Positions 1,967-33,712 are shown, counted from the first letter of the stretch. The stretch: DNA of 64,000 bases from an uncultured Thermodesulfobacteriota bacterium (GCA_964347335.1 CAYFYO010000001.1:2090-66089), one strand, 5' to 3'. Translations and numbers: made by a program. The notes: generated by a model not told the origin, from the sequence alone.

Positions 1967-3382
1967 TCACTTGTCTGAGAGCCCGTACTTTTGCATCTTG
2001 TATCGGAGAACTCGTTCGCTGAGTCCGAGGCTCTGGGCAGCTTTGGTCTGAACGCCTCTGTGCTTTTCAAGAGCCTCCAGGATGAGATTCCTTTCGATCT
2101 GTGAAAGTATTGTATTCAGAGACTCCCCCTCGGCCTCAAGATGGAGTCTACCCTCTTTCAACTCTTCCTGAACCTGAAAAGGGAGATCTTGCACGGTGAT
2201 GACATCTCCCCGGCTCACGACTAGGCTTCTTTCGATGATGTTCTCCAGTTCTCGGACGTTTCCTGGGTAGTCATATTGGAGCAATAGGTCCCTTGCCTCT
2301 TTCGAGATTTTCGGTACGGCCCGACGGTTCTTTTCACTGTATTTCTTCAGGAAGTGATCGATCAAAGGAGGGATGTCTTCCCGCCGTTCCCGCAAGGGAG
2401 GCAGAAAAATAGTCACAACGTTGAGTCGGTAGTACAGGTCGTCCCGGAAGGTCTTTTTGTGAAGGGCTTCCTCCAGGTTTCTATTGGTCGCCGTGATAAC
2501 CCTGACGTCGGTCCCTATGGTCTGATTGCTTCCGACTCGCTCGATCTCCTTCTCCTGGAGTACCCTCAGCAGTTTCATCTGAAGGGACGCTGAGAGGTCG
2601 CCGATCTCGTCCAAAAAGATGCTTCCCGTATGGGCTTGTTCGAATCGACCGATTCGTCTTTGAACGGCTCCGGTGAAAGCACCCCGTTCATGACCGAACA
2701 ATTCGCTCTCCAGGAGATTCTCTGGCAGGGCTGTACAATTGACCTTGATGAACGGCCTGCCCGCTCTGGGGCTGGCGTAATGGATCGCATTCGCAATGAG
2801 TTCCTTTCCCGTTCCGCTTTCACCCCGGATGAGAACCGTGGCCTCGCTGTTAGCGGCCCTTCCCGTCAGGTTCAGAACCTCTTCTATTTTTCCACTGGCG
2901 TAAACGATTTGATCGAAATGGTATTTCTCGCGGAGTCTTTCTTTCAGCTCACGGTTCTCGCGCTGGAGAAGAATGCTTTCAGATACTCTCTCGATGAGAA
3001 AGAGGAGCTCGTCCAGATCGATCGGCTTTGTGAGGTAATCTGCCGCGCCTACTTTCATTGATTGGACCGCCGTTTCGATAGTTCCGTAGGCGGTCATCAT
3101 GACCACCGTCAGCTCAGGATTGACCTTTCGGAGTTCACGGAGGGTTTGGAGGCCGTCCATATGGGGCATCTTGTAGTCTAGGAAAACAAGATCAACAACC
3201 TGACGTCGAACTGCGTCCAAGGCCTTTTTTCCACTTTCGACAGATGAAACGGAAAAACCCTGCTGAACGAGAAAGCCTTCCAGCATTTCCCGTTGCGTCT
3301 TTTCGTCTTCCACGATCAATACTTTCAAATCCTTCGCAGCCATGGCATGCCTATCATGAGATTTGTCGTAGAACCCGATCAT
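1967..3382 (-). CDS. zraR: sigma-54-dependent response regulator, NtrC/ZraR family
   Basis: It has an N-terminal receiver (DLKVLIVEDE...D...K), an AAA+ sigma-54 activator core (GESGTGKE, ESELFGHERGAFTGA, GAFTGA) and a C-terminal Fis-type HTH. The long start overlaps the kinase stop as ATGA. An alternative start MAAKDL lies at 3343. Confidence 0.9.
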   Translation of the reverse strand: MIGFYDKSHDRHAMAAKDLKVLIVEDEKTQREMLEGFLVQQGFSVSSVESGKKALDAVRRQVVDLVFLDYKMPHMDGLQTLRELRKVNPELTVVMMTAYGTIETAVQSMKVGAADYLTKPIDLDELLFLIERVSESILLQRENRELKERLREKYHFDQIVYASGKIEEVLNLTGRAANSEATVLIRGESGTGKELIANAIHYASPRAGRPFIKVNCTALPENLLESELFGHERGAFTGAVQRRIGRFEQAHTGSIFLDEIGDLSASLQMKLLRVLQEKEIERVGSNQTIGTDVRVITATNRNLEEALHKKTFRDDLYYRLNVVTIFLPPLRERREDIPPLIDHFLKKYSEKNRRAVPKISKEARDLLLQYDYPGNVRELENIIERSLVVSRGDVITVQDLPFQVQEELKEGRLHLEAEGESLNTILSQIERNLILEALEKHRGVQTKAAQSLGLSERVLRYKMQKYGLSDK

Positions 3383-5118
3383 TCGGGTCCTTTAACCGGG
3401 AGGAGGATGGACACGGTGGTCCCCTCTTCCACTCGACTTTCGATGTTGATACTTCCTCCGTGTTCCTCAATGATTTTACGCGCAATGGGAAGGCCCAATC
3501 CAAGACCTTTTTCTCGCGTCGTGTAGGAGTAGTCGAAGACTTTCTCGATCTTCTCCTTGGGGATGCCCTTCCCGGTATCGGAGACTGTGACCCTTACCCA
3601 GTCTTTTCTCGCTATTTCAGCTTTTACTTTCAGATTTCCCCCAGACTCCATGGCGTGAACGCCATTGGTCACGATGTTGATGAGCGCCTGAGTGATTTTT
3701 CCTTTATCCATGCCGAGAGACGGTAGTTTCGGATCTACCTCATTGTGCATCACAATGGATCTTGCCTTGAACTCTTCGCCAAAAAGGACGGAAATGTTGT
3801 CGAGAATCTCAGCAAGAGAGATGGGGGTGAGCGTCAGTTTGTAAGGTCTAGAAAAGAGAACAAACTGGTCGACAATCTGGTTTAGCCTGTTGATCTCCTC
3901 ACGCATGACCCCCATGAAGCGACCATACTCCTCCACGCGGGCCTTTTCGCGAGGGACAAACTCCCTTTGGAGCCGTTGAATGGCCATTGCAATTGCATTG
4001 AGGGGATTCCGGATTTCATGAGCAAGGCCTGCGCCGAGTTTTCCGATGGCGAGGTGTCTTTCAGCAGCCTGAGCTCTGATTTCCATCTCCCTAAGTCTTC
4101 TGAAGTGTCGGGTTTGATTGACGTGGATCAGGGTCACCCCGGCGATGCTGAGGGCCAGAAGCACCGCCACGGTTAAGACGACATTTCGCTTCGAGAGGGA
4201 GAGAACCTTCTGGATCTCCAAGGTGGACAGGCCAACCTGGATCATACCGTATGGGTTTTCGTCGAGGTGGAGGGTTTTTGCAACTTCGAACACCTCTTGC
4301 TTATTCGGCATCACCCGGAAACGAGATTCGATTCTGCTTCCCTCCAAAACCGATTGAAGAGAGGGCGGTCCCAGGATTTCGTCCATTTCCCCGCTCCCTA
4401 TTTGGGCGACCCGAGACAGGGAGCGGTCGAAAACCGATAGATAAAGAATCCCCTCCCCGAAACCCATGGTTTCAAGAACATTCTGGATGGCGAATTTACG
4501 CCTGAGATTCTTCATTTGATGGTAATCGACACTCACGGCGATGATCCCCTTCGCGGCAGCTCTTCGTATGGCAACCAGGAAGAGATCTTCCTCCTCCGGC
4601 AGAGGGCTCTTGAACGGGATGATCACCATGTTTTGTGTGCCTTCTACAAGGGGGAGGTAGTAGTTAAGGCGCTTTTCAGAGATCTGAGATGGTAAAAGTT
4701 CGCTCAGGATTTCGATCTTTTTGATTCCATTCCGCTGGGCGGTGTCTTTCAACTCCGGTTGCGACACTGTCTGGTCAGCGTCAGTTTGGTCTAACGTTAT
4801 TGCAATTTCCAGAAGATAATCCACAATGGCGTCTTCCAGGGCGAAGAAGCTCCTGGAAGAGGAGATGTTGAGCAGATGGGCTCCTGGAACACCCTCCATG
4901 ACCTCTATGACGGAGACCGAGTTCTGGATTTCCCTCTCGAGTCCTCGGAGAAGGTTCGCCCCCTGATTCTCCAGGATAGCTTTCAGGCTCTCTCGGGTCC
5001 GATTGAGCTCGAAAAAGCCATTCACGATCAGAATGATGATGATGAGACAGCAGAGAAGGGTGAGGTGGAGAGGACCTATAGAAGATCCATAACGACCAGA
5101 TTTTGTCTCTTTTGCCAT
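3379..5118 (-). CDS. zraS: sensor histidine kinase with periplasmic sensing domain, ZraS/NtrB-like
   Basis: Two TM segments flank a ~300-aa periplasmic region. The H-box is HEIRNPLNAIAMAIQRL and the HATPase_c N/G boxes (NGVHAME..DTGKGIP..GLGLGLPIAR) follow. It is ATGA-coupled to the response regulator. Confidence 0.85.
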   Translation of the reverse strand: MAKETKSGRYGSSIGPLHLTLLCCLIIIILIVNGFFELNRTRESLKAILENQGANLLRGLEREIQNSVSVIEVMEGVPGAHLLNISSSRSFFALEDAIVDYLLEIAITLDQTDADQTVSQPELKDTAQRNGIKKIEILSELLPSQISEKRLNYYLPLVEGTQNMVIIPFKSPLPEEEDLFLVAIRRAAAKGIIAVSVDYHQMKNLRRKFAIQNVLETMGFGEGILYLSVFDRSLSRVAQIGSGEMDEILGPPSLQSVLEGSRIESRFRVMPNKQEVFEVAKTLHLDENPYGMIQVGLSTLEIQKVLSLSKRNVVLTVAVLLALSIAGVTLIHVNQTRHFRRLREMEIRAQAAERHLAIGKLGAGLAHEIRNPLNAIAMAIQRLQREFVPREKARVEEYGRFMGVMREEINRLNQIVDQFVLFSRPYKLTLTPISLAEILDNISVLFGEEFKARSIVMHNEVDPKLPSLGMDKGKITQALINIVTNGVHAMESGGNLKVKAEIARKDWVRVTVSDTGKGIPKEKIEKVFDYSYTTREKGLGLGLPIARKIIEEHGGSINIESRVEEGTTVSILLPVKGPE

Positions 5119-5140
5119 CCTTCGTGTCGGTCAGCGGTGT

Positions 5141-5665
5141 TTATTCACGCTTGTCTTTCATTCTGGGTCTGTCGTTCATCGGACCCCGCCTGCGTCCGCG
5201 ATGCATGGGTTCCATTCCGGGCCCGTGGTGGATCCCATGATGGGAGGGCATTCCATGCCTGGATACCCAGAGTTCGAACTGTTGGGGAGTCAGAATGTCC
5301 CTCACCTGGAGCTGGTAGTCGAGGACCCGTTCTTGGATTCGGCTCTCCAAGGCAAAGACTTCTTGTTGCTTTGATCTGATTTCAGATGCCTTAGATTGGG
5401 AGTTGGATAGAAGCCTTCTCAGTTCATATCGCTTGCTGAGGAGCTTGTTTCTGAGAACGGTCATATCCCTCAAGTAATGATCCTGAGTGGATTCCATCTG
5501 TTCTATTTGCTTCTCTGTGAGATGAAGGTGTTCGGGAAGGAGAGATCGAGGTTCCCCTGGGCTTCTCCGCTCCGGGATAAGCGGTTGAACCCATTGAGCC
5601 CATCCGGAAGAACCTGCGAGGACACAAAAAGAGACCAAAAGGAGAATAGCCGCCCCGATTCTCAT
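5141..5665 (-). CDS. periplasmic Spy/CpxP/ZraP-family protein with His-rich C-terminus
   Basis: It has a signal peptide (MRIGAAILLLVSFCVLAGSSGWA) and two LTxxQ motifs (LTEKQIEQM, LTPQQFELW). The C-terminal tail is His/Met/Gly-rich (HGMPSHHGIHHGPGMEPMH). Confidence 0.75.
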   Translation of the reverse strand: MRIGAAILLLVSFCVLAGSSGWAQWVQPLIPERRSPGEPRSLLPEHLHLTEKQIEQMESTQDHYLRDMTVLRNKLLSKRYELRRLLSNSQSKASEIRSKQQEVFALESRIQERVLDYQLQVRDILTPQQFELWVSRHGMPSHHGIHHGPGMEPMHRGRRRGPMNDRPRMKDKRE

Positions 5666-5768
5666 GTATTCGCCTTACACAGCTTGATTACCCCAATTCG
5701 TGTAGAAAATCAATAGGCATGGGATCGGAGCGAATCTCCCGAGTTCAATCCCATGCCTTTCTTCTAAA

Positions 5769-6293
5769 CTACCAGCAATAACCGCCTCTATAGCCTCTCA
5801 TATGACCGGAACCAGGGTCCCCCATATGTCCCCATCCATGTCGGGGACCGTGCCCCATGCCATAGCCGTAACCCATGTGATGGCCAGAGCCCATTGGTCC
5901 GTTGCCAAAATACCCTTCAGGAAGAACCTCCCGCATAGCCAGTCTGTGCTCAAGGGCTTTCTCCTCGAGCTTCTGTCGGATCCCGGTGATCTCTCTCTGT
6001 TTTGCTTTGATCGTTTCGGGGTCGCTCTTGGGATCGACCCAAAGGCCCTGCAATTCGAGCCGCTTCTGATAGAGTTCCCGGCGGAGTTCAATGGTATCCT
6101 CGTAGAACCTCTGCTCCTGGGCCTGGATTTTCTCCTGTTGTTCCGGCGAAAGATCCGAGGGATACCCATAGGCGGCACCAGGGAATCCATAGCCCTTCTT
6201 CCCCCATGGTTCATGGGCGAAGGCTAAGCCGCTCATGAGCATAAGCGCCGTTATCACGGCGACAGTTGAGATGGTGCGTTGCGTTTTTCTCAT
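5769..6293 (-). CDS. zraP: periplasmic zinc-resistance-associated protein ZraP-like
   Basis: The start at MRKTQRT is preceded by a perfect SD (AAGGAGGT-6nt-ATG). It has a signal peptide, an LSPEQQEKI (LTxxQ-type) motif and a Gly/His/Met-rich C-terminus (GHHMGYGYGMGHGPRHGWGHMG) like E. coli ZraP. Confidence 0.8.
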   Translation of the reverse strand: MRKTQRTISTVAVITALMLMSGLAFAHEPWGKKGYGFPGAAYGYPSDLSPEQQEKIQAQEQRFYEDTIELRRELYQKRLELQGLWVDPKSDPETIKAKQREITGIRQKLEEKALEHRLAMREVLPEGYFGNGPMGSGHHMGYGYGMGHGPRHGWGHMGDPGSGHMRGYRGGYCW

Positions 6294-6343
6294 CGTCCGA
6301 CCTCCTTGGTGAGTTTGGATTGTCTTGCTAGTCAATTCAAAAT

Positions 6344-6646: not shown

Positions 6647-7678
6647 ATGAAAGCTGTGGAATTCAAAGCCATCAAAAAGGAAACCCTCATTCTCGATCCC
6701 AAGCAGAATATGGCTCCCAAGGCGATTCCGAGTGAGATCCGCAAGGACCCCCTGACCGGGCGGAATGCGAGAATTTGTCATTTCATGGCCCTCAACTGGG
6801 AAAAGCCTGACTTCAACAAACTCGTGAGTGGAACCGAGGCGTGGTGTCCATTCTGCCCGGACAAGGTGCTGAAGGTGACCCCCTTCTTTCCAGAGGAGAT
6901 CCTGCCCGAAGGGAGGCTTATGTCGGATGACATGGTTCTCTTTCCCAATATTGCTCCTTATGACAGCCTTGGTGCTGTGGCGACGATGGGCAAGCGTCAT
7001 TTCATCCCGATGACCGAGATCAGACCAGAGCTGATTGCGAAAGCGTTTCGCCTCGCTATGGAGTTCTTCCGGAAGATCCATGACAAGGGGAATCCAGAGT
7101 CGGTCTATCATTTGATTAATTGGAACTACATGCCACCTGCGGGGAGTTCGCTGATTCATGCCCACTTGCAGGTGTTTGCTTGTTCGATCGCACCCAATCT
7201 CATGCGGGAGGAATTGGAGGCAGCCAGAGCGTACATGAAGCTGAACGGGACCAATTACTGGGATGACCTGATAGAAATAGAAACGGCCGAGGCGGAACGA
7301 TACCTTGGGAAGATCGGTCGCACCAACTGGCTGACGGTTTACGCCCCCATGGGAGTTGCCGGAGATGTCCTTGCCATCGTGGATGGCATTCGATCCACGC
7401 TTGAGCTCACGAACGAGGACCTTTCTGACCTATCCCTGGGCCTCACCAAAGCCATGGCCGCCTATGACAAGATGGGGATTTATAGCTTCAATATGAACTT
7501 CTTTACGGGCCGAGAAGGGGATGACCACGCTCGGGTGCATCTGCTCTTTTCCCCAAGGACATTTTTCAACCAGGCCCTCGGAGCCACAGACATCGGCGCC
7601 ATCAGAAACCTCTACAATGAGCCCATTTGCATGGCCTTTCCCGAAGAGATCAATGGGATGTTGAAGACAGAATTTTGA
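6647..7678 (+). CDS. GalT-like HIT-superfamily nucleotidyltransferase (galactose-1-phosphate uridylyltransferase family)
   Basis: It has the HIT-like HAHLQV motif and a CPFCPD Cys pair resembling the Zn-binding site of GalT. It is divergent from the zraP operon. Confidence 0.55.
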   Translation: MKAVEFKAIKKETLILDPKQNMAPKAIPSEIRKDPLTGRNARICHFMALNWEKPDFNKLVSGTEAWCPFCPDKVLKVTPFFPEEILPEGRLMSDDMVLFPNIAPYDSLGAVATMGKRHFIPMTEIRPELIAKAFRLAMEFFRKIHDKGNPESVYHLINWNYMPPAGSSLIHAHLQVFACSIAPNLMREELEAARAYMKLNGTNYWDDLIEIETAEAERYLGKIGRTNWLTVYAPMGVAGDVLAIVDGIRSTLELTNEDLSDLSLGLTKAMAAYDKMGIYSFNMNFFTGREGDDHARVHLLFSPRTFFNQALGATDIGAIRNLYNEPICMAFPEEINGMLKTEF

Positions 7679-7896
7679 AGGACCCAGAAGGAGTTAGCAA
7701 TCAGAATAAAGGTGGAGCGAACACGTATTCCTCAGGAGGTAATTCCCCAGGAGATAATATGGCGATTGGTCTTTTCCTACGATGGAGATAGGCTATGATG
7801 AACTTCGTTCACGAGGCCTCGGATGGGGTGCCTTGGCTTCGTTCGTGATCTATTCTGAATTCTGACTCCTGACTTCTGAATTCAAAGGAACCTAGA

Positions 7897-8025: not shown

Positions 8026-8658
8026 TCAAATGATTCTTGAAAAGAGGATGAAGTTGCCCGCACCGTGGAGGATGAAGGGAGCGAAAAGGCTGCCTGTATA
8101 CTCATAGAGGAGGGCAAAGACCACTCCGCCCACCAGAGGTATAAGAACTCCGGTCGCTGTTCCGGCGCCAAGGAGGTGGCTGGCGGCAAAAATAATAGCG
8201 GAGAAAACGACAGATAACCAAACCCCCCTGTGAGCTCTGATCAAGGTGTAGCAGAGCCCGCGAAAGAAGATCTCTTCGGCAAAAGGGCCGAGAAGACAGA
8301 CCGATAGGAGGGGAAAAAGCCCCCGAATCTTCACTCCTGGGTTCACAAAAGCCCGCAGATCCACTCCCCAGAGCGTTTGTGTTGCGTAGGAAACCAGAAA
8401 AAAACCTGATCCGAGGATTATCGAGACCGCCAGACCGAGGAGTCCGCCCTTAACGAATCCATGCAGACCCACTCCTGACAGAGGAACGGATAGAATTCTG
8501 AAAAGCGCAAAGAACAGAATAATGTCCGCGCATCGAACCATCCCGGTCCAGCTCAGCGGGTGGAAGCCTGCGGCCAAAGGGAGGCCCTGCAGGGAGGCCG
8601 AGACAACCTCGAGAGCAACCAGCGCGGCTGCAGTGACAAGAAATGCCTTCTCCCTCAT
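8026..8658 (-). CDS. CPBP-family (CAAX/Abi) intramembrane metalloprotease
   Basis: It has the EExxxR motif (FAEEIFFRG), conserved His (FAASHLLG...HGAGN) and multiple TM segments. Its start ATG overlaps the stop of the upstream gene as ATGA. Confidence 0.75.
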   Translation of the reverse strand: MREKAFLVTAAALVALEVVSASLQGLPLAAGFHPLSWTGMVRCADIILFFALFRILSVPLSGVGLHGFVKGGLLGLAVSIILGSGFFLVSYATQTLWGVDLRAFVNPGVKIRGLFPLLSVCLLGPFAEEIFFRGLCYTLIRAHRGVWLSVVFSAIIFAASHLLGAGTATGVLIPLVGGVVFALLYEYTGSLFAPFILHGAGNFILFSRII

Positions 8659-10001
8659 CCGCTCCATCCGAGTCTCCTGAGCGCGCGCAAAAGGTAATGT
8701 TTCACATACCAATCCTCTTTTCCCCTGAGCCGGGATTCGAGGAATGGAACCACGCTCCTCTCTCCCAGCACGGAAAGAGCAAATATAGCCTTGCAGCGCA
8801 CAATGGAAACGGGGTCCCGACGCGCTGCCGTTGCCAGTATCTCTCTGTTTTCCATCGAGGGGAGATGAGCGAGAGCCGTTGCTGCCCACAAACGGACCGC
8901 CGGATTATCACTTTCCAAATACCTGATGAAGGCCTTTCTCGTCTCTTCATCCCGTGTCTTTTTCTCAGATATGACCCAGTTGCGAATTTCGTCGACATTT
9001 TCAGCGGGGAAACCCTTTTCAGACTCCGCAGCATTCCTTGAAAGGAGGTTGTAAATCAAAAGGCCAGAAAGAGACGCAACACACACGATCAAAATGATCC
9101 TCGAATACGTGGAGACCATAACGAGGCGGTCCAACGCGAATAACACGAAGAGGGTAATGGCCAGTGGAGAAGCGATGAAAATGGAATAGAAGATCGTTCT
9201 CCTTAGCCTACGGATGCTTTTCCCTCCAGTCCATTTCTCGACGGCCTTCATAATCTCGGGGCCTGTGCTGAGGTTTCCGGGAAGGGTCAGATCTGCCGAC
9301 TCCTGGGTTGAAACAGCGTAGATGCCTCTCTTGAGAAGCCATGATTTCTCGTCCTGTTTCACAGGGATCTCCGTCCAAATCGTGACCTGGGTTCGTTCCC
9401 TGGGAGGGGTGATCAGCTCCGCCGTTATCGGGGAATATTGGTAGTAGAAGGCGACCACCTTTTCCCCCAAGGATTTCTGGAGCATATAATCCCGAACTTC
9501 GAAGAAAGCCTGTTGCCGGAAAAGCAGGAGAACCATGACGAGAGGGACGAGGGCGAAAAGCGCCACCTTGTGAAATGAAACGTGAGGGATGCTTACGACG
9601 AGATGGACAAATCCGAAAAAGCCGAAAAAAAGGAGTAGTTCTAGAGGAGAAAATCCCAAAAGGAGAGAAAACGAGGCTGAAACGAAAACAGCCCATCCCA
9701 AACGAATTGGCTTTGAAAGCCTAAGACGGTCCAGACAGAAAGATCCAGCAAATGCAACAACGCCGAATGTGAAACCGAGTGTGAATGTAAAGAAAATCCC
9801 TGCCTTCGCGAGTGAACCCACTTGGATATAGTTCCACATCTCACCGGCCAGGGGAACCGGAACGTACCCAGAGGCGGCCAGGGCTTCCAGTTTTGCCATA
9901 AACGCCAGGCTAAAGCTTCTCAATCGGAAGTAAGCCCAGATTTGGGTGATCAGAAAGGCGAGGATCTGGATGACAAGAAAAGGTCGGAGATACATCGGCA
10001 T
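8655..10001 (-). CDS. polytopic membrane protein with C-terminal HEAT/PBS-lyase repeat domain
   Basis: Nine or more hydrophobic segments are followed by HEAT-like repeats (DNPAVRLWAATALAHL, DPVSIVRCKAIFALSVLG, DWYVKHYLLRALRRLG). It starts 30 nt after the oxidoreductase stop. Confidence 0.65.
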   Translation of the reverse strand: MPMYLRPFLVIQILAFLITQIWAYFRLRSFSLAFMAKLEALAASGYVPVPLAGEMWNYIQVGSLAKAGIFFTFTLGFTFGVVAFAGSFCLDRLRLSKPIRLGWAVFVSASFSLLLGFSPLELLLFFGFFGFVHLVVSIPHVSFHKVALFALVPLVMVLLLFRQQAFFEVRDYMLQKSLGEKVVAFYYQYSPITAELITPPRERTQVTIWTEIPVKQDEKSWLLKRGIYAVSTQESADLTLPGNLSTGPEIMKAVEKWTGGKSIRRLRRTIFYSIFIASPLAITLFVLFALDRLVMVSTYSRIILIVCVASLSGLLIYNLLSRNAAESEKGFPAENVDEIRNWVISEKKTRDEETRKAFIRYLESDNPAVRLWAATALAHLPSMENREILATAARRDPVSIVRCKAIFALSVLGERSVVPFLESRLRGKEDWYVKHYLLRALRRLGWSG

Positions 10002-10031
10002 CCCGAGAGTGCAAGAGGTGTACCAGAGGAT

Positions 10032-11951
10032 TCAGCGCCTTTCCACTCTCACACCTTGGCCGTAAAAGGCAATCCCATCGGGGCGATCCGTGAATCTTCC
10101 CTCGACTAGCCGGTTGCTGCCCCAACCGTACTTCAACCATGGCCCGCGGCCCACGATGACCGCCGAGGGATGGAGTCCCTTTTCGGCTTTGAGTTGAACC
10201 GGCATCTCCCCAAGGGGCGAGATGATGACTCCCAGCTCTCCCGCCTTAAGTCCCAAATTCCGAAGTGTTGATGGGGCCAAGAAAGCCTCGGGTGTCAGGG
10301 ATTCATGCTCTTCGGGCAGGATCTGGGAGTGGATGAATTCCTTTCTAATGAGCGTCAAAAAGGTCAGTGGATAGTCCGGATCGACCGATTCATCTGGTGA
10401 AATCTCTGTCAAAAAACGAAATCTTCCGTCTCTGTGGTCGAAACGCCCTCCCTCGAAGGCAACGGTGGGACGGTCCGCCTGTGCGGTCCCGTGCTTTCGG
10501 AGTCCTTCGAGGGTAGTATCGAGAAAAGCGCTTTCCAGGCTTCGACGGAGATAGCTCTCCCGTTCCTCGAGATCGATCGGTGGTTTCAGCCGACGTCCGA
10601 TTTCCGCGACGATCTCGAAGTCGCTTTTTGCACCCTCCGGTGGGGGAACGACAGCCCCAGAATAGTTCACGAAGTGGTGGCCCCATGATCCGACGACGTC
10701 TTCCTCCTCGAACATCATCGTGCAGGGCAGAACGAGATCGGCAGCCTCTGCCGTATCCGTCATGAAGGGATCGGCGACGGCAACGAAGGGTGTCTTTTTC
10801 AAGGCCTGTAAAAGGACCGAGGATTCCGGTGTCTGATTGACAGGATTCCACATGGAAATCCAGACCATGTGAATCGGGGGATCCGATGCCTCAAGAATCG
10901 ATCGGCCAATATGAGCAACTGGAACGGTCCTCGTGTACCTCTCCTCTCCCACCCACTCGAGGTTGAGGTTTTGTCGGGAGGAGACGCTATAGTAGGCTCC
11001 GCCTCCTTGGCGCCCGATGTTCCCGGTAATGAAGGCTAACGCGTTGATGGTTCGGACGCTTTCTGCCCCGTGAGGATACCGCTGTAAGCCGTTACTCAGG
11101 ATGGTGGCACAGGGATGGTGCTGATGGTAGAACTCCGCAAGAGCCTCAATATCCCGGATGGAAGCATCGCAGCTTTGGGAGAGGTCAGCGAGGGAATACC
11201 TGTCGAGAAGGACGGTGAATTGATCGAGGTTGTAGGCCTTCTCTTCAATTCGGGGAGAAATCCCATGCCCTTTGACGGTCTCCTTCGCGGCGGCGATAGC
11301 CAAAAATCGGTCCGTGCCCGGGCGAATGCGAATTGTGCGGTCTGCGAATCCTCTATTCTCCTCTGCTCGAGGGGAGATGGAGATGACGGCTGTTCCGCGT
11401 CTTCTAGCCTGAGCCACGAGCCCCCCCGTATGGACCGAGCTGACCCCGAGCTTTTTGCCCCAGACCACAATTCCTTTGGCGTTCAGCAGATCTTTGGGAT
11501 CATTCATTCGTAGGGCGTCAAAATCCTCTATGCAGGCTTCTATGCCAGTGCTATCGCAGACTCCTTCAGGAAGGATCCGGCTTGCGCCAAGGTTAGCAAA
11601 GAAGGCATCCTCGACGAGCTTACTGACCCCCTTGGCGGCTCCTCCTCTGAGATGAAGGATCGAGCCGGGTTCTCGGCGTAACGTGTCAATCCTTTCGGCA
11701 CAGAGGGAAAGCGCCTCATCCCAAGAGATCTCTCGCCACCGTTCCCCCTTTCTGAGGAGAGGCCTTTTGAGCCGACTCGGGGAGGTGAGCCTTTTGGGGA
11801 GCCGTTGGATCTTTCCACAGCAGTAGCCGCTCGTATAGGGATGATCGGGGTTTCCCCGTATCCTGGTGATTCTATCGTTCTCTTTTTCGACCAGCACGGA
11901 GCAGGCATCGGGGCAGTCGAGTGTGCAGGCGGATAGGTAGGTTTCTCTCAT
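10032..11951 (-). CDS. molybdopterin-dependent oxidoreductase (MopB superfamily), cytoplasmic, substrate unknown
   Basis: An N-terminal Cys cluster (CTLDCPDAC...C) typical of the Fe4S4 domain of bis-MGD enzymes is followed by molybdopterin-binding domains. There is no Tat signal. A GTG start at 11966 is also possible. Confidence 0.8.
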   Translation of the reverse strand: MRETYLSACTLDCPDACSVLVEKENDRITRIRGNPDHPYTSGYCCGKIQRLPKRLTSPSRLKRPLLRKGERWREISWDEALSLCAERIDTLRREPGSILHLRGGAAKGVSKLVEDAFFANLGASRILPEGVCDSTGIEACIEDFDALRMNDPKDLLNAKGIVVWGKKLGVSSVHTGGLVAQARRRGTAVISISPRAEENRGFADRTIRIRPGTDRFLAIAAAKETVKGHGISPRIEEKAYNLDQFTVLLDRYSLADLSQSCDASIRDIEALAEFYHQHHPCATILSNGLQRYPHGAESVRTINALAFITGNIGRQGGGAYYSVSSRQNLNLEWVGEERYTRTVPVAHIGRSILEASDPPIHMVWISMWNPVNQTPESSVLLQALKKTPFVAVADPFMTDTAEAADLVLPCTMMFEEEDVVGSWGHHFVNYSGAVVPPPEGAKSDFEIVAEIGRRLKPPIDLEERESYLRRSLESAFLDTTLEGLRKHGTAQADRPTVAFEGGRFDHRDGRFRFLTEISPDESVDPDYPLTFLTLIRKEFIHSQILPEEHESLTPEAFLAPSTLRNLGLKAGELGVIISPLGEMPVQLKAEKGLHPSAVIVGRGPWLKYGWGSNRLVEGRFTDRPDGIAFYGQGVRVERR

Positions 11952-12282
11952 ATGGACTCTTCTCACGGATGTGTCTCAAGAGTGCTCTTGCTTTTTCAGA
12001 AGATTTTTTGTTAAATCTAACCTTGCTTATTTCGTCCTTTCAATACTGTGGGTTCGTGCTCGTGTAGCCCACCAGTTTATGACACGAAGGGAAGTGTTTT
12101 TGCCGAGTTCGGATCACAACCTTTCGGCCGATAACGGCGCCCCCGCCCCATTCACGCGGCCCGGTTATTCCCGCAGCGGCATTATATCAGCTAGAAGATG
12201 GTTTTAAAATGAGCAATTCTCGTTTCGATCCATCCTGGTGGGGGTAGCCCTTCGGTGATAACAGTCGGGGAGTAGAGTCGTT

Positions 12283-15200
12283 TTGAAAAAAAGGTCTTCC
12301 GCGCTTCTTCTCATCGGCTTCGTGGTGGTCGTGATTTTGGGAATCGGTGTGGCCTACGTCCGTTTCTACCTCGGAGCCAGGTTGGCCGAGGAGGCACTCA
12401 AAACGGCGATTCAGTCGGGTCTCGGTGGGAGGGCGACCATTTCGCGGACCGTGATTCATTGGTTGGGTCGTCCTGGAATTGAGTACCGAGGGCTCTCCAT
12501 TCGGGGTGACGACGAGGAGGCCGGCTGGCTCACGGTTAAACGGATGATCGTTAGACCCGAGCTCGGGAGTATCTTTTCAAAATCCATCGAGTGGAAAAGC
12601 CTCGAACTTGAGGGCCTGGTGGGACGGTTTACCGGAGGGGTGGGGTCGTTTCCCATGGAGTACCTGGTTTCGATGCTTCCGAGGGTCGATTGGTTCGAGG
12701 TCAGAGGGGGGACGCTTGCATGGGGTGAGAGGGAAATCCGAGACCTCTTTGTCTCTCTTGGCAATCTCTCAACGGCGGGACCATTTCCGGTGGTGCTGAA
12801 GGGAGCCCTGAAGACGAAAAAGGGTCCTCCCGCGAGGGTTTCGGTTCATGGACTGGCTCATGGATCCTCTGAGGAATGGGCCCCGTGGGACCTCAAACTC
12901 TCGGCCAAAGTCAAGGCAAAAGGTCTCGATCCGACGTGGCTCGGTGACCTATTGGCCCGATCCATTCCATCACAACTCGCTGGCAGCAGCCTGACGATCG
13001 CGGCGGCATTTGAAGGATACCTGAGAGGTCGGTTTCACTCATCGGGGAGGGTGACCATCGCGGGTGTTCGTTTCTTGGAGGGAATGGACAGGGTGAATGT
13101 CGATTTTGCGTTCAGCTGGGATGGCCAAAAACTGGAGTTCCAGAGGATTCGCCTCCAGACCCCGTCCATGCCTCTGGAGGGACGGGGCGTCATTCGTGGG
13201 AGACGGGGAGACGATCCGGTGATCTCTTTTCGAGTTGACTGCCCATGGGTATCGATCAGAGGACAGAAAAGCGTGTTTCCCTTTCTTCCTGAGAAGGTCC
13301 GTTCCTTCTTGAAATCCATCAACCAGGGAGAAATCACCCTCATGTCAATGGGCTTCACGGGCCCTCTGAAGAGCTTCGGATTTCCTCAAGACGAAGAGTC
13401 GCTTCTCCGATGGGGGGGGAAGATCGGTTTCAGGAATGTGGTTTTTCCATGGAGGGGGGAGACCCTTGAATTAAGAAGGGGTTTACTGAATATAGACCAA
13501 GGCCGTCTTGGGGGGGAAGCCCTCGGTCTGCGTCTCGGCGATTCAGAGTTGGAGATTTCTCCCTTAACGCTCGCGCGACCTTTCGGCGATCAGTCGATCG
13601 AAATGACCCTGAAGGGCGAAGTGAACCTCCCGGACATTTCAAAATGGATTTCCACGGGCTTCATTCCGGAAAAATTGGCGCTTCCCCTTTCGGAGATTGA
13701 GGTTCAGTCGGGCACGGGGGAGGTTGATATTCGATTTGAGAAACGGCGTGGACTTCCGATCTCGTCTGCCCTCACTGGGAGTATGTTCCTTAGGGATGCG
13801 GCCATCCGAATCCACCACATTCCCGGGACTTTTGAGAAAATGAATGGGCTGGTAGAGCTATTCTCCACGGGCATTTCAGTTCGTGACGTTCAGGGCAGGT
13901 GGCGGAATTCGACCGTGAGGGCGAATGGCTCGGTGGCTATCCGTTCTTCAGATCATTCAGAGATTGACTTTTTGATGGAAGGCCGACTCGACCTGAGAAA
14001 CCTTCGTGAAATTGAGTCATGGAGGTTGCTGCCTGTTGATATACGTAAGGTTCTCCAGGAGGTCAACTCCCCCGCAGGGAGCGGAGACTATGTTGTGGCG
14101 GTAAAAGGCCGAGTCGGGTCGGGTGATGACATTGAAGTCAGTGGAGAGCTATCGGTGAGGAAAGGGTCCTTTCGACTTTGGGACGCCTACCCTGTGGAAC
14201 GGGTTGACGGCCAGATTTTCTTCTCGAGAGAGAGGATTTCGATCCCTCATTTGCAGGGAAACTGGAAGAATTCGGATCTGGCGTTGCGGGCAGCTTTGAC
14301 GCGGCCCGGGGCGAAGTTCTTCAGGGACTTACGCTTCTCGGGGGTCTTCGATCTTCGAGACATCGCAGCAGAGCGTTTCGAGCGCGGGTCTCCAAGGACG
14401 TGGAGAAAATTCCTCAAACCTTTCGAGTTCTATCGCGGAAAGGCGCTTGTTGAGGTGAACAACCAGAAGCGCCATGACGGGGCCTCCGTCGATGGCCACA
14501 TCACCTTTAAGGAGGCCGAGGTTCGTCATGTGCCTGTTTTCCCTCCCCTCACCGACGTCGAGGGGAGGGTCTCCTTTCACGGAAAGGGTATTGAGACTGT
14601 CGATGTTGAGGGAAAGTTCGATTCGAGTCTCATTCGGATTCGGGGCGATCTGGCTCCGGCGTCCGGAGATTCCCAGCCTTTCCTCTCCATTCAGGCGGAG
14701 CGCGTCGACTTTGAGAAGGTGATGTCCTGGCCTTGGACAAGCGGTTATTCCTTCGGCCGGAAGAGTCGACCCCCGCTGGCGGTTCGGGTTCGGGTCGACA
14801 ATGGGGGCTTCAGGGAGATTCCGTTCTCTGATGTCCAGGCGAGACTAAAGTTAAAGGGTGATCGGATCTCTTTTGAGGAAGTGACTTTCATCTCAACCCA
14901 GGGTCAGGGTTTAATCAGGGGATGGCTCGGTCTTGGGAATGACGGTAAAGTATCCTTCGAATTTCGACCGTATTTTCTCAAGGTCGAGACAAATCCGATT
15001 GTGAGAAGCTTTCAAAGTGGAGAGGGCGAGCAAGAGTTAAGCGGGTTATGTTCTGCCCTTGGCGTCATACGGGGAGGTGGGAACAAGGCTGAGGAGATTG
15101 TCCGATCCCTGAATGGAGAGATTGGTATCTTTCTGGAGGGGGGAAGGATCGGACAATTCGGCGTCTTGGCACAGGTATTCTCCCTTCTCAACCCCTCTCA

Positions 15201-15663
15201 GCGTGATGGGGACGATTCTCCAGATCCAAAGACAGGGGGATTGACTTATGGGACCATTATGGGAAAGGTCACCCTCAGGGAAGGTCGGGCCTCGACCAGC
15301 GATCTTTTACTCGACAGTGATTCCATAAGAATTTCGGCAGTGGGAGACTTTGAGATCCCCTCCGGCGGTCTGGATCTGCGGCTTGGACTTCGCCGAGTCG
15401 GTGCTCGGGGGAAGGTCATCAGAACAGTTCCTGTCTTTGGAAAAATTGTGACCACCGATCGGGGGAGTTTCATCCATTACTACCTCGAGGTGAAAGGCAC
15501 GATCGCTGAGCCAGAAGTGAAAGGGATTCCGTATCTGTCGCTTTCTGACGGCGTTTCTGGACTCATACACGAGCTGCTAGAGACGCCGAGAAAGGTGGTT
15601 CCCTTTCAAAGACAGCCGGATTTAGAAGAATATTTCGACCAGAGAAAGCATCCCCACCCCTAG
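12283..15663 (+). CDS. AsmA/TamB-like large envelope protein (N-terminal TM anchor, 1126 aa)
   Basis: A single N-terminal TM helix (LLLIGFVVVVILGIGVAYV) is followed by a long beta-rich, Gly/Arg-rich region characteristic of the AsmA family. Confidence 0.65.
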   Translation: MKKRSSALLLIGFVVVVILGIGVAYVRFYLGARLAEEALKTAIQSGLGGRATISRTVIHWLGRPGIEYRGLSIRGDDEEAGWLTVKRMIVRPELGSIFSKSIEWKSLELEGLVGRFTGGVGSFPMEYLVSMLPRVDWFEVRGGTLAWGEREIRDLFVSLGNLSTAGPFPVVLKGALKTKKGPPARVSVHGLAHGSSEEWAPWDLKLSAKVKAKGLDPTWLGDLLARSIPSQLAGSSLTIAAAFEGYLRGRFHSSGRVTIAGVRFLEGMDRVNVDFAFSWDGQKLEFQRIRLQTPSMPLEGRGVIRGRRGDDPVISFRVDCPWVSIRGQKSVFPFLPEKVRSFLKSINQGEITLMSMGFTGPLKSFGFPQDEESLLRWGGKIGFRNVVFPWRGETLELRRGLLNIDQGRLGGEALGLRLGDSELEISPLTLARPFGDQSIEMTLKGEVNLPDISKWISTGFIPEKLALPLSEIEVQSGTGEVDIRFEKRRGLPISSALTGSMFLRDAAIRIHHIPGTFEKMNGLVELFSTGISVRDVQGRWRNSTVRANGSVAIRSSDHSEIDFLMEGRLDLRNLREIESWRLLPVDIRKVLQEVNSPAGSGDYVVAVKGRVGSGDDIEVSGELSVRKGSFRLWDAYPVERVDGQIFFSRERISIPHLQGNWKNSDLALRAALTRPGAKFFRDLRFSGVFDLRDIAAERFERGSPRTWRKFLKPFEFYRGKALVEVNNQKRHDGASVDGHITFKEAEVRHVPVFPPLTDVEGRVSFHGKGIETVDVEGKFDSSLIRIRGDLAPASGDSQPFLSIQAERVDFEKVMSWPWTSGYSFGRKSRPPLAVRVRVDNGGFREIPFSDVQARLKLKGDRISFEEVTFISTQGQGLIRGWLGLGNDGKVSFEFRPYFLKVETNPIVRSFQSGEGEQELSGLCSALGVIRGGGNKAEEIVRSLNGEIGIFLEGGRIGQFGVLAQVFSLLNPSQRDGDDSPDPKTGGLTYGTIMGKVTLREGRASTSDLLLDSDSIRISAVGDFEIPSGGLDLRLGLRRVGARGKVIRTVPVFGKIVTTDRGSFIHYYLEVKGTIAEPEVKGIPYLSLSDGVSGLIHELLETPRKVVPFQRQPDLEEYFDQRKHPHP

Positions 15664-31954: not shown

Positions 31955-32706
31955 CTGACTTCGGAAAACCTTCTCCATGGCATCGACCACCTTTCTATCG
32001 TGACGACAAGATAAAAGAGACCCACCCCGAGGATGGTCAGGTACAAAAGCGAGGCAAAGATCAAGGAGACCTGGAGCTGCGCGTTGGCATGGAGCATGAG
32101 ATAACCCAGCCCTTCCTTTGATCCCACCCATTCCCCGATGATAGCGCCGATGGTTGAGACCGAAACCCCGATCTTACAGCCGGAGAAGACAAAAGGGAGT
32201 GCAGCGGGGACCCGGACTTTCCAAAGGATCTGCCACCGATTGGCCTTGAGAATTCTCAGCAGGTTCACGGCATCCGAATCGGCGCGTTTCAAACCATCCA
32301 GGGTATTGACAACGATGGGAAAGAAGACAATGAGCGCAGCCATAACGACCTTCGAGGGAAGCCCATAGCCAAACCAGAGAACGAGAAGCGGAGCAATGGC
32401 AAAGACCGGCACGGTTTGGGATCCAATCACGATGGGATAGAAAGTCTGCTCGAGGACAGGAAAATGAAACATCAAAAAAGCCAACGTCACACCGACTCCA
32501 AAGGCCAACAGGAAACCGACGATGATCTCTTTCAGGGTGACGAGGGTGTGATGGATGAGGAGAGGCTGTTGCAGGGCCAGCGTCCGAGCGATTTGACTTG
32601 GAGCCGGAAGGATATAACGGGGAACTCGCGCATACCAGACAGTGAGCTCCCAGAAAAGTAGAAAGAGCAAAAGGAGCATACCGGGATAGAGAATCCTTTT
32701 GGTCAT
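31951..32706 (-). CDS. thiX: ABC transporter permease (ThiX/SsuC family)
   Basis: Six TM helices with an EAA-like loop, overlapping both neighbours by 4 nt. Confidence 0.8.
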   Translation of the reverse strand: MTKRILYPGMLLLLFLLFWELTVWYARVPRYILPAPSQIARTLALQQPLLIHHTLVTLKEIIVGFLLAFGVGVTLAFLMFHFPVLEQTFYPIVIGSQTVPVFAIAPLLVLWFGYGLPSKVVMAALIVFFPIVVNTLDGLKRADSDAVNLLRILKANRWQILWKVRVPAALPFVFSGCKIGVSVSTIGAIIGEWVGSKEGLGYLMLHANAQLQVSLIFASLLYLTILGVGLFYLVVTIERWSMPWRRFSEVR

Positions 32707-33494
32707 GCGAATGCCCTCTCGATTTCCCCTTCCAACATATCGAGGAGGGTTGCCTTGAGATCGACGAGCTTTGGGTCGGTCACTTTCCTGAACCGCGGCA
32801 TATCCACGGCGATTTCCCGCTTAACGCTGGCGGGGCGAGCCGTCAACACGTAGATCCGATCGGATAGGAGCAGAGCTTCCTCCACATCGTGGGTGACCAA
32901 AAGGACCGTCTTCCGGTAATCTTTCCAGAGATCGATGAGGAGCCGTTGCATCACCGATCGAGTCATGGCATCGAGGGCCCCGAAGGGTTCATCGAGGAGA
33001 AGGATATCTTTATGGGAGAGGAGCGTCCTTACGAGGGCGACTCTCTGCCGCATGCCAACCGATAGCTCGGCCGGATAGTTCTTCTCGAATCCTTTAAGAC
33101 CCACCCGATCGATGAGCGCTTCGGCCTCTCTCTGGGCAGACGCGAGAGGTTCGCCGGAGATCTCCGGTCCCAAGAGGACATTCTGGAGAACCGTTCTCCA
33201 GGGAAAGAGGAGGTCCTTCTGCTGCATGTATGCCACTTCCCCGAGTCCGTTTTGGACTTGTCTGTTGTCAATCGAGATGATTCCTGAGTCACTCTTCATC
33301 AAGCCAGCCAGAACATTGAACAGGGTGCTCTTGCCGCATCCTGATGGGCCGAGGATGGAGATAAATTCCCCGGTGCGCACAAAAAGGGAGACATCCTGGA
33401 GAATGGTCAGGGAAAGGCTCCCCTTTGGGAGGCTCTTTTTGATCTCCCACAGAGAGAGCTTATGCTCCTTCGAGAAAGACGGTTCCCTCTTCAT
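32703..33494 (-). CDS. thiZ: ABC transporter ATP-binding protein (ThiZ/SsuB family)
   Basis: Walker A GPSGCGKST, signature LSVGMRQRVAL, Walker B LLLDEP. The start MKREPSF lies downstream of the riboswitch terminator. Confidence 0.8.
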   Translation of the reverse strand: MKREPSFSKEHKLSLWEIKKSLPKGSLSLTILQDVSLFVRTGEFISILGPSGCGKSTLFNVLAGLMKSDSGIISIDNRQVQNGLGEVAYMQQKDLLFPWRTVLQNVLLGPEISGEPLASAQREAEALIDRVGLKGFEKNYPAELSVGMRQRVALVRTLLSHKDILLLDEPFGALDAMTRSVMQRLLIDLWKDYRKTVLLVTHDVEEALLLSDRIYVLTARPASVKREIAVDMPRFRKVTDPKLVDLKATLLDMLEGEIERAFA

Positions 33495-33549
33495 TGTCCT
33501 GTCTGTCGCTTCCTTGACCGCCAGGATTGCTTTGCGACGGTCATGGAAC

Positions 33550-33585
33550 AAAAAAAGGCCGTAATTCCAATTCGGTATTACGGCC
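33550..33585 (-). terminator. intrinsic terminator forming the expression platform of the TPP riboswitch
   Basis: Minus-strand GGCCGUAAUACCGAAUUGGAAUUACGGCC hairpin followed by UUUUUUU. Confidence 0.55.
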
Positions 33586-33608
33586 ATAATCCGATTCTAT
33601 GGTTTCCG

Positions 33609-33700
33609 CTTCCCTACGCTGGAATTACCCACACAGGTTCAAAGGGTCATCCCGTCCTCGCTGGGTCGGACGGAATTCTCAGCCCGTTGAGCTCCCCTAG
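33609..33700 (-). promoter_or_regulatory. TPP (THI-box) riboswitch
   Basis: The minus strand reads GGGGAGCUCAACGGGCUGAGA...GACCCUUUGAACCUGUGUGGGUAAUUCCAGCGUAGGGAAG. The conserved CUGAGA, ACCCUUUGAACCUG, UAAU.CCAGCG and AGGGA elements are present in the canonical order. Confidence 0.75.
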
Positions 33701-33712
33701 CGAATCTCTCCT

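Follow-up and report, generated by a model that had tools for sequence, protein, structure and literature searches.

A conserved gene pair for a HEAT-repeat membrane protein and a putative CPBP-family intramembrane protease in Desulfobacterota, preceded in one lineage by a molybdopterin oxidoreductase gene

Introduction

CPBP or Rce1-like proteases are very common in bacteria, and to our knowledge few of them have a known substrate or partner. Here we describe one such protein encoded in a 64,000-nt stretch of DNA from an uncultured Thermodesulfobacteriota bacterium (GCA_964347335.1 CAYFYO010000001.1:2090-66089; the whole stretch is called the window, and positions are counted from its first letter). 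At 8026-11951, three open reading frames (ORFs) run in one direction on the minus strand and encode a molybdopterin oxidoreductase (MopB), a polytopic membrane protein with HEAT repeats (from the gene at 8655-10001, for which we use the name HEAT-TM), and the CPBP protein. An initial annotation, made from the sequence alone, took the three genes for a possible redox-protease system; the comparison presented here suggests instead that HEAT-TM and CPBP form a conserved pair, and that MopB joined them in one lineage.

Among described systems, the myxosortase-type CPBP sorting proteases MrtX, MrtJ and MrtS (Haft 2023, bioRxiv 10.1101/2023.06.07.544157; PMC11980579) share with the CPBP protein of the window an Rce1-like core carrying the motifs EExxxR, FxxxH and HxxxN; they differ in that the cutoffs of their own hidden Markov models (HMMs) lie far above the scores reached here, and in that the described systems have no HEAT-repeat membrane partner. 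A second precedent is LnsA/LnsB of Staphylococcus aureus, which is responsible for lipoprotein N-acylation (PMC7387801). LnsB, a membrane protein of the CPBP family, acts on envelope proteins only together with a second dedicated protein, which is close to what we propose for the pair; LnsA, however, is of the NlpC/P60 type and bears no relation to HEAT-TM, the lns genes are not adjacent to each other, and the organism is Gram-positive. Finally, the Abi/CPBP-fold proteins SpdC and Abx1 modulate the membrane kinases WalK (PMC5854430) and CovS (PMC3578759). Both act by contacting a second polytopic membrane protein, and in the window's clade a kinase/regulator set does adjoin the pair; yet the partner of SpdC and Abx1 is a histidine kinase, whereas HEAT-TM has no kinase domain, the catalytic residues of CPBP are invariant, and the kinase linkage does not extend to the wider family.

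The closest solved relatives of MopB are FdhF/Fdh-alpha and NapA, with which it shares the complete MopB fold (TM-score 0.84-0.86), the N-terminal [4Fe-4S] domain and a Cys where FdhH has selenocysteine (Sec) 140; it differs in its low identity to them (18-20%), in having Asp in place of the formate dehydrogenase (FDH) His, and in an iron-sulfur (Fe-S) motif Cx3Cx3C rather than Cx2Cx3C. In the Psr, Phs and Ttr enzymes with NrfD/PsrC anchors, as in the window, a MopB gene adjoins the gene of a polytopic membrane protein. Unlike these systems, the window shows neither a twin-arginine translocation (Tat) signal nor a four-cluster Fe-S subunit, the membrane part of HEAT-TM has no NrfD or other Pfam match, and MopB has been lost repeatedly while the membrane protein stays. 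The PBS-lyase-type HEAT proteins (alphaRep, YibA, CpcE/F, NblB) match the C-terminal 100 residues of HEAT-TM by both sequence and fold; they are soluble, whereas in HEAT-TM the solenoid forms one protein with a 7-helix membrane domain whose family is undescribed.

Results and discussion

The HEAT-TM gene (8655-10001, minus strand) encodes 448 amino acids (aa), and the CPBP gene (8026-8667, minus strand) 213 aa if translation starts at ATG 8667 or 210 aa if it starts at ATG 8658. In a tblastn comparison of 24 loci, CPBP follows immediately after HEAT-TM in each locus whose sequence extends beyond HEAT-TM on that side. The pairing was recovered in about 15 distinct relatives from the close clade and in 5 very distant homologues (20-25% identity; loci L025, L026, L027, L028 and L031), where an Rce1-like gene of ~214 aa stands at the HEAT-TM end amid unrelated flanks and, L027 excepted, overlaps it. 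The identities of the two proteins to their window counterparts fall in step across loci (HEAT-TM/CPBP 73/74, 65/68, 61/69, 55/62, 46/56 and about 22/28%), and the ratio of nonsynonymous to synonymous substitution rates (dN/dS) of the pair genes is 0.17-0.24.

From these data we suggest that HEAT-TM and CPBP make up a conserved functional module across a wide, mostly uncultured Desulfobacterota family, and that MopB is a recent, lineage-specific and dispensable passenger, its three-gene synteny being limited to one narrow uncultured lineage. We place the probability of this explanation at roughly 0.65, a figure that covers jointly the pair as a conserved module, MopB as a passenger, and the adaptor-protease mechanism discussed below. 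The initial annotation had asked for conserved synteny in other genomes: the adjacency of HEAT-TM and CPBP was found in every locus recovered, while the trio occurs only in close relatives. Its impression that the combination is undescribed fits the literature as far as the pair is concerned; full-text literature searches found no description of a CPBP and HEAT-repeat gene pair, and we regard HEAT-TM and CPBP as a two-gene membrane module, with a partner of an undescribed family, that was not found described in the literature.

The initial annotation is correct on the three genes, on their assignment to families and on how tightly they are packed, including the gap of 30 nt between MopB and HEAT-TM. 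The start of CPBP overlaps the stop of HEAT-TM, and the ATGA overlap proposed earlier is indeed present, with its ATG at 8658. An alternative start at ATG 8667, 9 nt further upstream, has a properly spaced GGAG Shine-Dalgarno sequence and gives a product of 213 aa, the same length as the annotated homologues; for these reasons an overlap of 13 nt is more likely than ATGA. Because the genes overlap, HEAT-TM and CPBP are probably translationally coupled. The only non-overlapping locus is L027, where a PemK-type toxin-antitoxin pair (L027 8881-9485) lies between HEAT-TM and CPBP.

The close family of HEAT-TM is small, with 28 members among 5.8 billion proteins and an occurrence in 2 species of the GTDB representatives, and a profile search of 1.84 billion representatives brought in full-length homologues of 490-520 aa with ~20-25% identity. 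The wider family numbers at least 413 in the indexed database; its entries come from Deltaproteobacteria or Thermodesulfobacteriota metagenome-assembled genomes and are named only 'HEAT repeat domain-containing protein'.

CPBP matches the Rce1-like family PF02517 with 67.8 bits (cutoff 22.4), and all catalytic motifs are present: EExxxR (E128, E129, R133), FxxxH (F157, H161) and HxxxN (H198, N202). These seven residues are invariant in 8 partner CPBPs, down to 25% identity, and we assign the protein as a putative glutamic intramembrane endopeptidase of the Rce1 type. No curated CPBP subfamily model reaches its cutoff on the window protein. The best curated models for all 8 partner CPBPs compared are MrtS and MrtJ, and the window protein scores 44.8 against a cutoff of 130 for MrtS, 36.9 against 75 for MrtJ, and 23.8 against 100 for Mrt_core. 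Cys-containing C-terminal sorting signals were found neither among the ORFs of the 64-kb window nor in the flanks of 8 loci.

In HEAT-TM, the sole Pfam matches are HEAT_2/HEAT at residues 357-442, the HEAT_2 model (PF13646) covering 358-442 with 67.4 bits (cutoff 27.7); residues 1-330 have no Pfam match in the window protein or in 20 homologues, and neither Foldseek nor profile searches found a PDB relative for them. The AlphaFold model, built from 59 sequences, is confident (predicted local distance difference test, pLDDT, 88.6; predicted TM-score, pTM, 0.85). It places helices at 5-43, 61-92, 97-114, 119-135 and 145-160, followed by an alpha/beta insert of ~100 residues, two further helices at 261-296 and 299-324, a flexible linker, and the helix pairs of the HEAT solenoid at 336-443; the linker, 322-335, is the only stretch of low confidence (pLDDT ~55). 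By hydropathy, 7 membrane segments are seen in 49 of 59 homologues when spurious segments inside the HEAT domain are disregarded, and the ~9 transmembrane helices first proposed are thus reduced to the 7 on which hydropathy and model agree. The solenoid matches alphaRep, YibA and CpcE in Foldseek and hmmsearch (alphaRep TMt 0.90; profile E-values down to 4e-51).

Conservation in HEAT-TM is concentrated in two places. The ~100-aa loop carries an invariant motif, RD..LL / FYY.Y..AE, just after helix 5 (R170, D171, G179, Y186, Y187, A194 and E195), and the C-terminus carries the invariant residues W431, Y432, L441 and W446. The C-terminal motif EDWYVKHYL..ALRRLGW is the best-conserved part of the protein and is kept in lineages with and without MopB. 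No invariant His or Cys that could hold a cofactor was found in HEAT-TM, nor a NrfD-like domain. We also considered whether the membrane domain might be a degenerate CPBP paralogue, which we reject (hhalign probability 0.1%). A weak match to CFI_box_CTERM at residues 170-199 (window 9403-9492, minus strand; 24.9 bits, cutoff 40) coincides with the invariant loop motif RD..LL / FYY.Y..AE; we consider it probably spurious, since the stretch is internal to the protein and the Cys by which the domain is defined is missing from it.

On which side of the membrane the HEAT domain lies depends on how charges are counted. If Lys and Arg (K+R) are summed over the short loops, the values are 9.8 vs 3.7, with the same sense in 49 of 49 homologues, which would put the N-terminus inside and the big loop and HEAT domain outside; adding the 15 membrane-flanking residues of the long loops evens this out to 10.4 vs 9.8. 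The positive-inside rule is thus contradictory for HEAT-TM, its outcome being set by the loops that are counted, and the cytoplasmic HEAT domain of the initial annotation is not established, the short loops favouring the opposite.

Gene order, the pattern of conservation, the losses of MopB, the conservation of the catalytic motifs and the confidence of the predicted folds are direct observations. As the most likely mechanism, we infer an adaptor-protease complex of HEAT-TM and CPBP that acts on envelope proteins. The catalytic subunit would be CPBP, acting as a glutamic intramembrane endopeptidase, with HEAT-TM docked onto it within the membrane; the HEAT solenoid together with the conserved interfacial loop would recruit or position the substrate. 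Envelope proteins are suggested as the clients because the recurrent neighbours of the pair include YhdP/AsmA-like genes, ZraP-like chaperones with a kinase and a sigma-54 regulator, PagL, and type II secretion genes. Going further, we can speculate that HEAT-TM and CPBP constitute a hitherto undescribed two-component system for the processing or sorting of envelope proteins, widespread in Desulfobacterota, in which a membrane-embedded HEAT-solenoid receptor delivers specific clients to a dedicated Rce1-like protease; this is a tentative extension, on the doubtful side. If true, this would place the pair beside exosortase and myxosortase systems in kind, with the difference that the receptor is a subunit of its own and belongs to a new fold family. 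In any case, a strictly conserved and coupled partner, with a confident model and a membrane domain lacking known relatives, gives a handle on one CPBP subfamily, and HEAT-TM with CPBP a defined two-protein system for study.

In two of the distant loci, L027 and L031, a T2SSE/MshEN ATPase gene lies directly upstream of the pair and a PagL lipid A deacylase gene downstream. L031 also encodes, three genes upstream of the pair (L031 1137-2666), a TIG-domain protein ending in an IPTL-CTERM signal (IPTLQE, a hydrophobic helix, and RKR) that has no Cys. We set aside IPTL-CTERM proteins as substrates of the pair, since this is one instance only in the loci compared; it is a lead rather than evidence.

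An alternative mechanism is that HEAT-TM is itself the substrate of CPBP, cut for example in the linker after the last helix so that the HEAT domain is released as a signal, as in regulated intramembrane proteolysis. The strict pairing and co-evolution of the genes would be expected in this case too, the linker is the one part of the model with low confidence, and the pair of the close clade has the kinase and sigma-54 regulator set as its neighbour. Yet this regulator neighbourhood does not extend to the wider family, the sequence of the linker is poorly conserved, which would be unusual for a dedicated cleavage site, and neither protein has a DNA-binding or anti-sigma domain; we consider this alternative unlikely.

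CPBP could also be non-proteolytic and form with HEAT-TM a two-component membrane enzyme or scaffold, to which HEAT-TM would contribute, through its interfacial motif, a second active or binding site. LnsB with LnsA, SpdC and Abx1 would be the analogies. Non-proteolytic roles are documented for members of the CPBP family (PMC7387801, PMC5854430, PMC3578759), the invariant residues R170-D171, Y186-Y187 and E195 lie at the membrane interface, and YhdP and PagL are lipid-related neighbours. Against this, all 3 catalytic motifs remain invariant down to 25% identity, as fits Rce1-type catalysis, no acyltransferase or NlpC/P60 partner is present, and no kinase is linked in the wider family. A non-proteolytic CPBP therefore seems improbable to us, and the adaptor-protease complex is retained.

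Turning to the first gene, MopB (10032-11951, minus strand; 639 aa from its ATG) appears to encode a cytoplasmic enzyme of the bis(molybdopterin guanine dinucleotide) (bis-MGD) type. It matches Molybdopterin PF00384 (127.9 bits) and Molybdop_Fe4S4 PF04879 (40.1 bits, cutoff 22.7), and Molydop_binding PF01568 falls just under its cutoff (24.4 bits, cutoff 26.8). The Fe-S cysteines C9/C13/C17/C45 (Cx3Cx3C...C) are invariant in 17 homologues, as is C132-D133; in alignments, C132 takes the position of Sec140 in E. coli FdhH and that of the Cys in 7bkb_D, and the Asp133 that follows this ligand replaces the His of the FDH signature. The initial annotation was right that the protein has no Tat signal: the N-terminus, MRETYLSACTLDC, leaves 8 residues before the first cluster Cys, and neither a Tat signal nor a hydrophobic segment was found in MopB. 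It was also right about partner subunits, as there is no Fe-S or NrfD-type subunit within ~5 kb.

We placed MopB relative to reference families by the cutoffs of curated HMMs, comparing Fdh-alpha, NasC/NasA, DmsA/Ynf, PhsA, QrcB, BisC, NapA, FdnG, TorA, NarG, ArrA, AioA, YdeP, EbdA and TtrA. It is far below the cutoff of every curated NCBIfam equivalog model: Fdh-alpha (TIGR01591) scores best, with 178.1 bits against 666.25, and the Nas, Nap, Psr/Phs, Ttr, Arr, Dms/Ynf, Tor/BisC, Nar, QrcB and YdeP models give 24-127 bits against cutoffs of 360-2000. The AF2 model of the full-length protein (pLDDT 88.9, pTM 0.90) is about equally similar to Fdh, Nap, Pcr, Arr and Psr (TM-score 0.81-0.87, 16-20% identity), with 0.84-0.87 for Fdh, Nap, Pcr and Arr, and agrees with the four-domain MopB fold, its C-terminal dinucleotide-binding domain included. 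As predicted from sequence, MopB is a Cys-ligated, partner-less cytoplasmic enzyme of the bis-MGD type from an uncharacterised clade. In Desulfobacterota this clade has many members (2410 hits; identities of about 45-48% once the close clade is left); full-text literature searches found no description of it, an exact-sequence look-up of the window protein returned no record, and no second MopB paralogue was found within the window. With its size, conservation, cytoplasmic location and lack of partners, this clade in sulfate reducers is a separate lead. Because the Fe-S and ligand cysteines are invariant, and dN/dS against L001 and L016 is 0.12-0.16 (a rough value, with dS near saturation), MopB looks intact and functional where it is retained.

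The distribution of MopB across loci is very different from that of the pair. Relatives with 74% MopB identity keep all 3 genes; they keep the whole neighbourhood too, and so the trio in them says little alone. Full MopB is present in the window, in the near-identical L001 group (L001-3, 9, 11-13) and in L016, and its C-terminus is seen at the contig edge in L018. Two loci hold only a scar: in L007 (7613-7964) residues 1-67 are joined out of frame to 589-638, and in L014 (949-1612) residues about 1-128 remain together with 510-639. These pseudogene scars differ in their breakpoints, the two deletions being independent, and HEAT-TM and CPBP are intact in both. MopB is absent from L010/L017, L008, L019 and L020, and from all 5 distant contexts. 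In a neighbour-joining tree of HEAT-TM, L014, L007 and L010 nest inside the MopB-bearing clade, and L008, L019 and L020 form its MopB-less sister. The simplest reading of this sequence pattern is one insertion of MopB, followed by at least 3 losses. In L010, the ~1.25 kb between YhdP and HEAT-TM (L010 6734-7979) contain no ORF >73 aa and no detectable remnant of MopB; a short inverted repeat lies at about 7713-7747.

MopB homologues with 46% identity occur in Desulfonema ishimotonii, Desulforhabdus amnigena and Desulfomicrobium salsuginis, all of them without HEAT-TM or CPBP. In Desulfonema (L004 10298-10945) and Desulforhabdus (L005 7928-8587), MopB is followed by the gene of a conserved ~216-aa protein; the two proteins are 42% identical, share the motif HDH(S/N)SWG and belong to no Pfam family. 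The window lacks this protein, a candidate for the partner that MopB enzymes of this clade usually have.

The promoter region bears on how MopB came to its place. The best promoter-like site in our scan, TTTAAA-16 nt-TATAAT with TG in front (12181-12208, minus strand; score 10/12), is of the sigma-70 type with an extended -10; it lies ~230 nt upstream of the MopB start and coincides with the sole conserved block of the intergenic region. Its core, TTTnAAAAC...TGATATAAT, is invariant in 8 loci, MopB-less loci included, and in the latter it stands directly upstream of HEAT-TM. Because the core promoter is the same with or without MopB, MopB appears to have been placed between a pre-existing promoter and HEAT-TM. 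Neither an internal promoter nor a convincing terminator was found in the three-gene unit, nor a riboswitch, for the molybdenum cofactor (Moco) or otherwise, in the 330-nt leader before MopB, and MopB, HEAT-TM and CPBP are probably one transcription unit. The order promoter, MopB, HEAT-TM, CPBP would then join two unrelated things, the ancestor of a single subclade having acquired MopB once, between promoter and HEAT-TM, and its descendants having lost it several times. Both deletion scars retain the 5' and 3' ends of MopB beside an intact HEAT-TM, which agrees with selection for continued expression of the downstream genes. Taken together, the promoter and the scars support co-transcription, and speak against a functional dependence on MopB. 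They also illustrate how tight operon packing can mislead: within one lineage, the scars of repeated deletion indicate that a gene probably transcribed together with its neighbours need not depend on them in function.

Several points weigh against our explanation. The physical complex, the proteolysis, the class of substrate and the role in the envelope are all what we infer, and no HEAT-TM/CPBP fusion protein was seen among the matches listed. The charge counts settle no shared side for the HEAT domain and the active site of CPBP. Flanking genes in the wider family are heterogeneous (cobalamin genes in L028, for example), and for this reason the envelope role is a weak element of the proposal. 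The HEAT-TM tree is a neighbour-joining tree without support values, and the distant contexts of MopB homologues compared are 3. Finally, the gap between MopB and HEAT-TM is conserved at 30-35 nt in the window, L001, L016 and L018, and where lineages have retained MopB, the gene evolves under purifying selection. A functional link between MopB and the pair that is specific to this lineage has, in our view, a low probability.

The last two points would also fit the view that the three proteins are one system, in which HEAT-TM anchors or regulates MopB and CPBP processes one of them, coupling redox chemistry to intramembrane proteolysis; the single apparent transcription unit and the lack of another electron-transfer partner near MopB point the same way. 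Against this stand the loci L007, L014 and L010/L017, where MopB is deleted or absent and the other two genes are intact, the sister clade and the 5 distant contexts that have no MopB, and the MopB homologues that live elsewhere without HEAT-TM or CPBP. HEAT-TM itself lacks both an NrfD-like domain and any invariant His or Cys at which a cofactor could bind, its HEAT domain is as conserved without MopB as with it, and this domain may be periplasmic, in which case cytoplasmic MopB could not dock to it. A redox-protease system of three genes, as first proposed, is therefore very unlikely, given that MopB was repeatedly lost with HEAT-TM and CPBP left intact. Of the two observations that the initial annotation had named as speaking against its own proposal, one was made, as the synteny of the trio is not conserved elsewhere; the other was not, as MopB falls in no characterised clade, its curated HMM scores being far below the cutoffs. 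That the adjacency is due to chance or to an annotation artefact, with ORFs that are no functional unit, has for it only that the unit is known from sequence, and the conservation data already refute it: about 20 independent loci contain the pair, the two genes overlap and have a low dN/dS, and the structure models of HEAT-TM and MopB are both confident.

Other features of the window

The window is ordinary chromosome, with Mfd, LysRS and similar genes. Divergent from MopB lies the YhdP/AsmA-like gene (12283-15663), and convergent with CPBP a HIT/GalT-like gene (6647-7678, plus strand). No Pfam family matches the 343-aa product of the latter, and NCBIfam gives only weak GalT/HIT-like matches; with 82-85% identity across the close clade, the protein is better conserved than every neighbour. 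Beyond it, a ZraPSR-like envelope-stress set (1967-6335, minus strand) contains 2 Metal_resist/LTXXQ (ZraP-like) genes (5141-5665 and 5769-6335, minus strand), a histidine kinase (3379-5118, minus strand) and a sigma-54 response regulator (1967-3382, minus strand). The set is syntenic with HEAT-TM/CPBP throughout the close clade, and not in the wider family.

Further away, a thiamine pyrophosphate (TPP) riboswitch was detected at 33594-33708 on the minus strand (Rfam RF00059, 69.1 bits; gathering threshold 54.3). The gene that follows it immediately (32703-33587) encodes an ABC-transporter ATPase, probably part of a thiamine-related uptake system.

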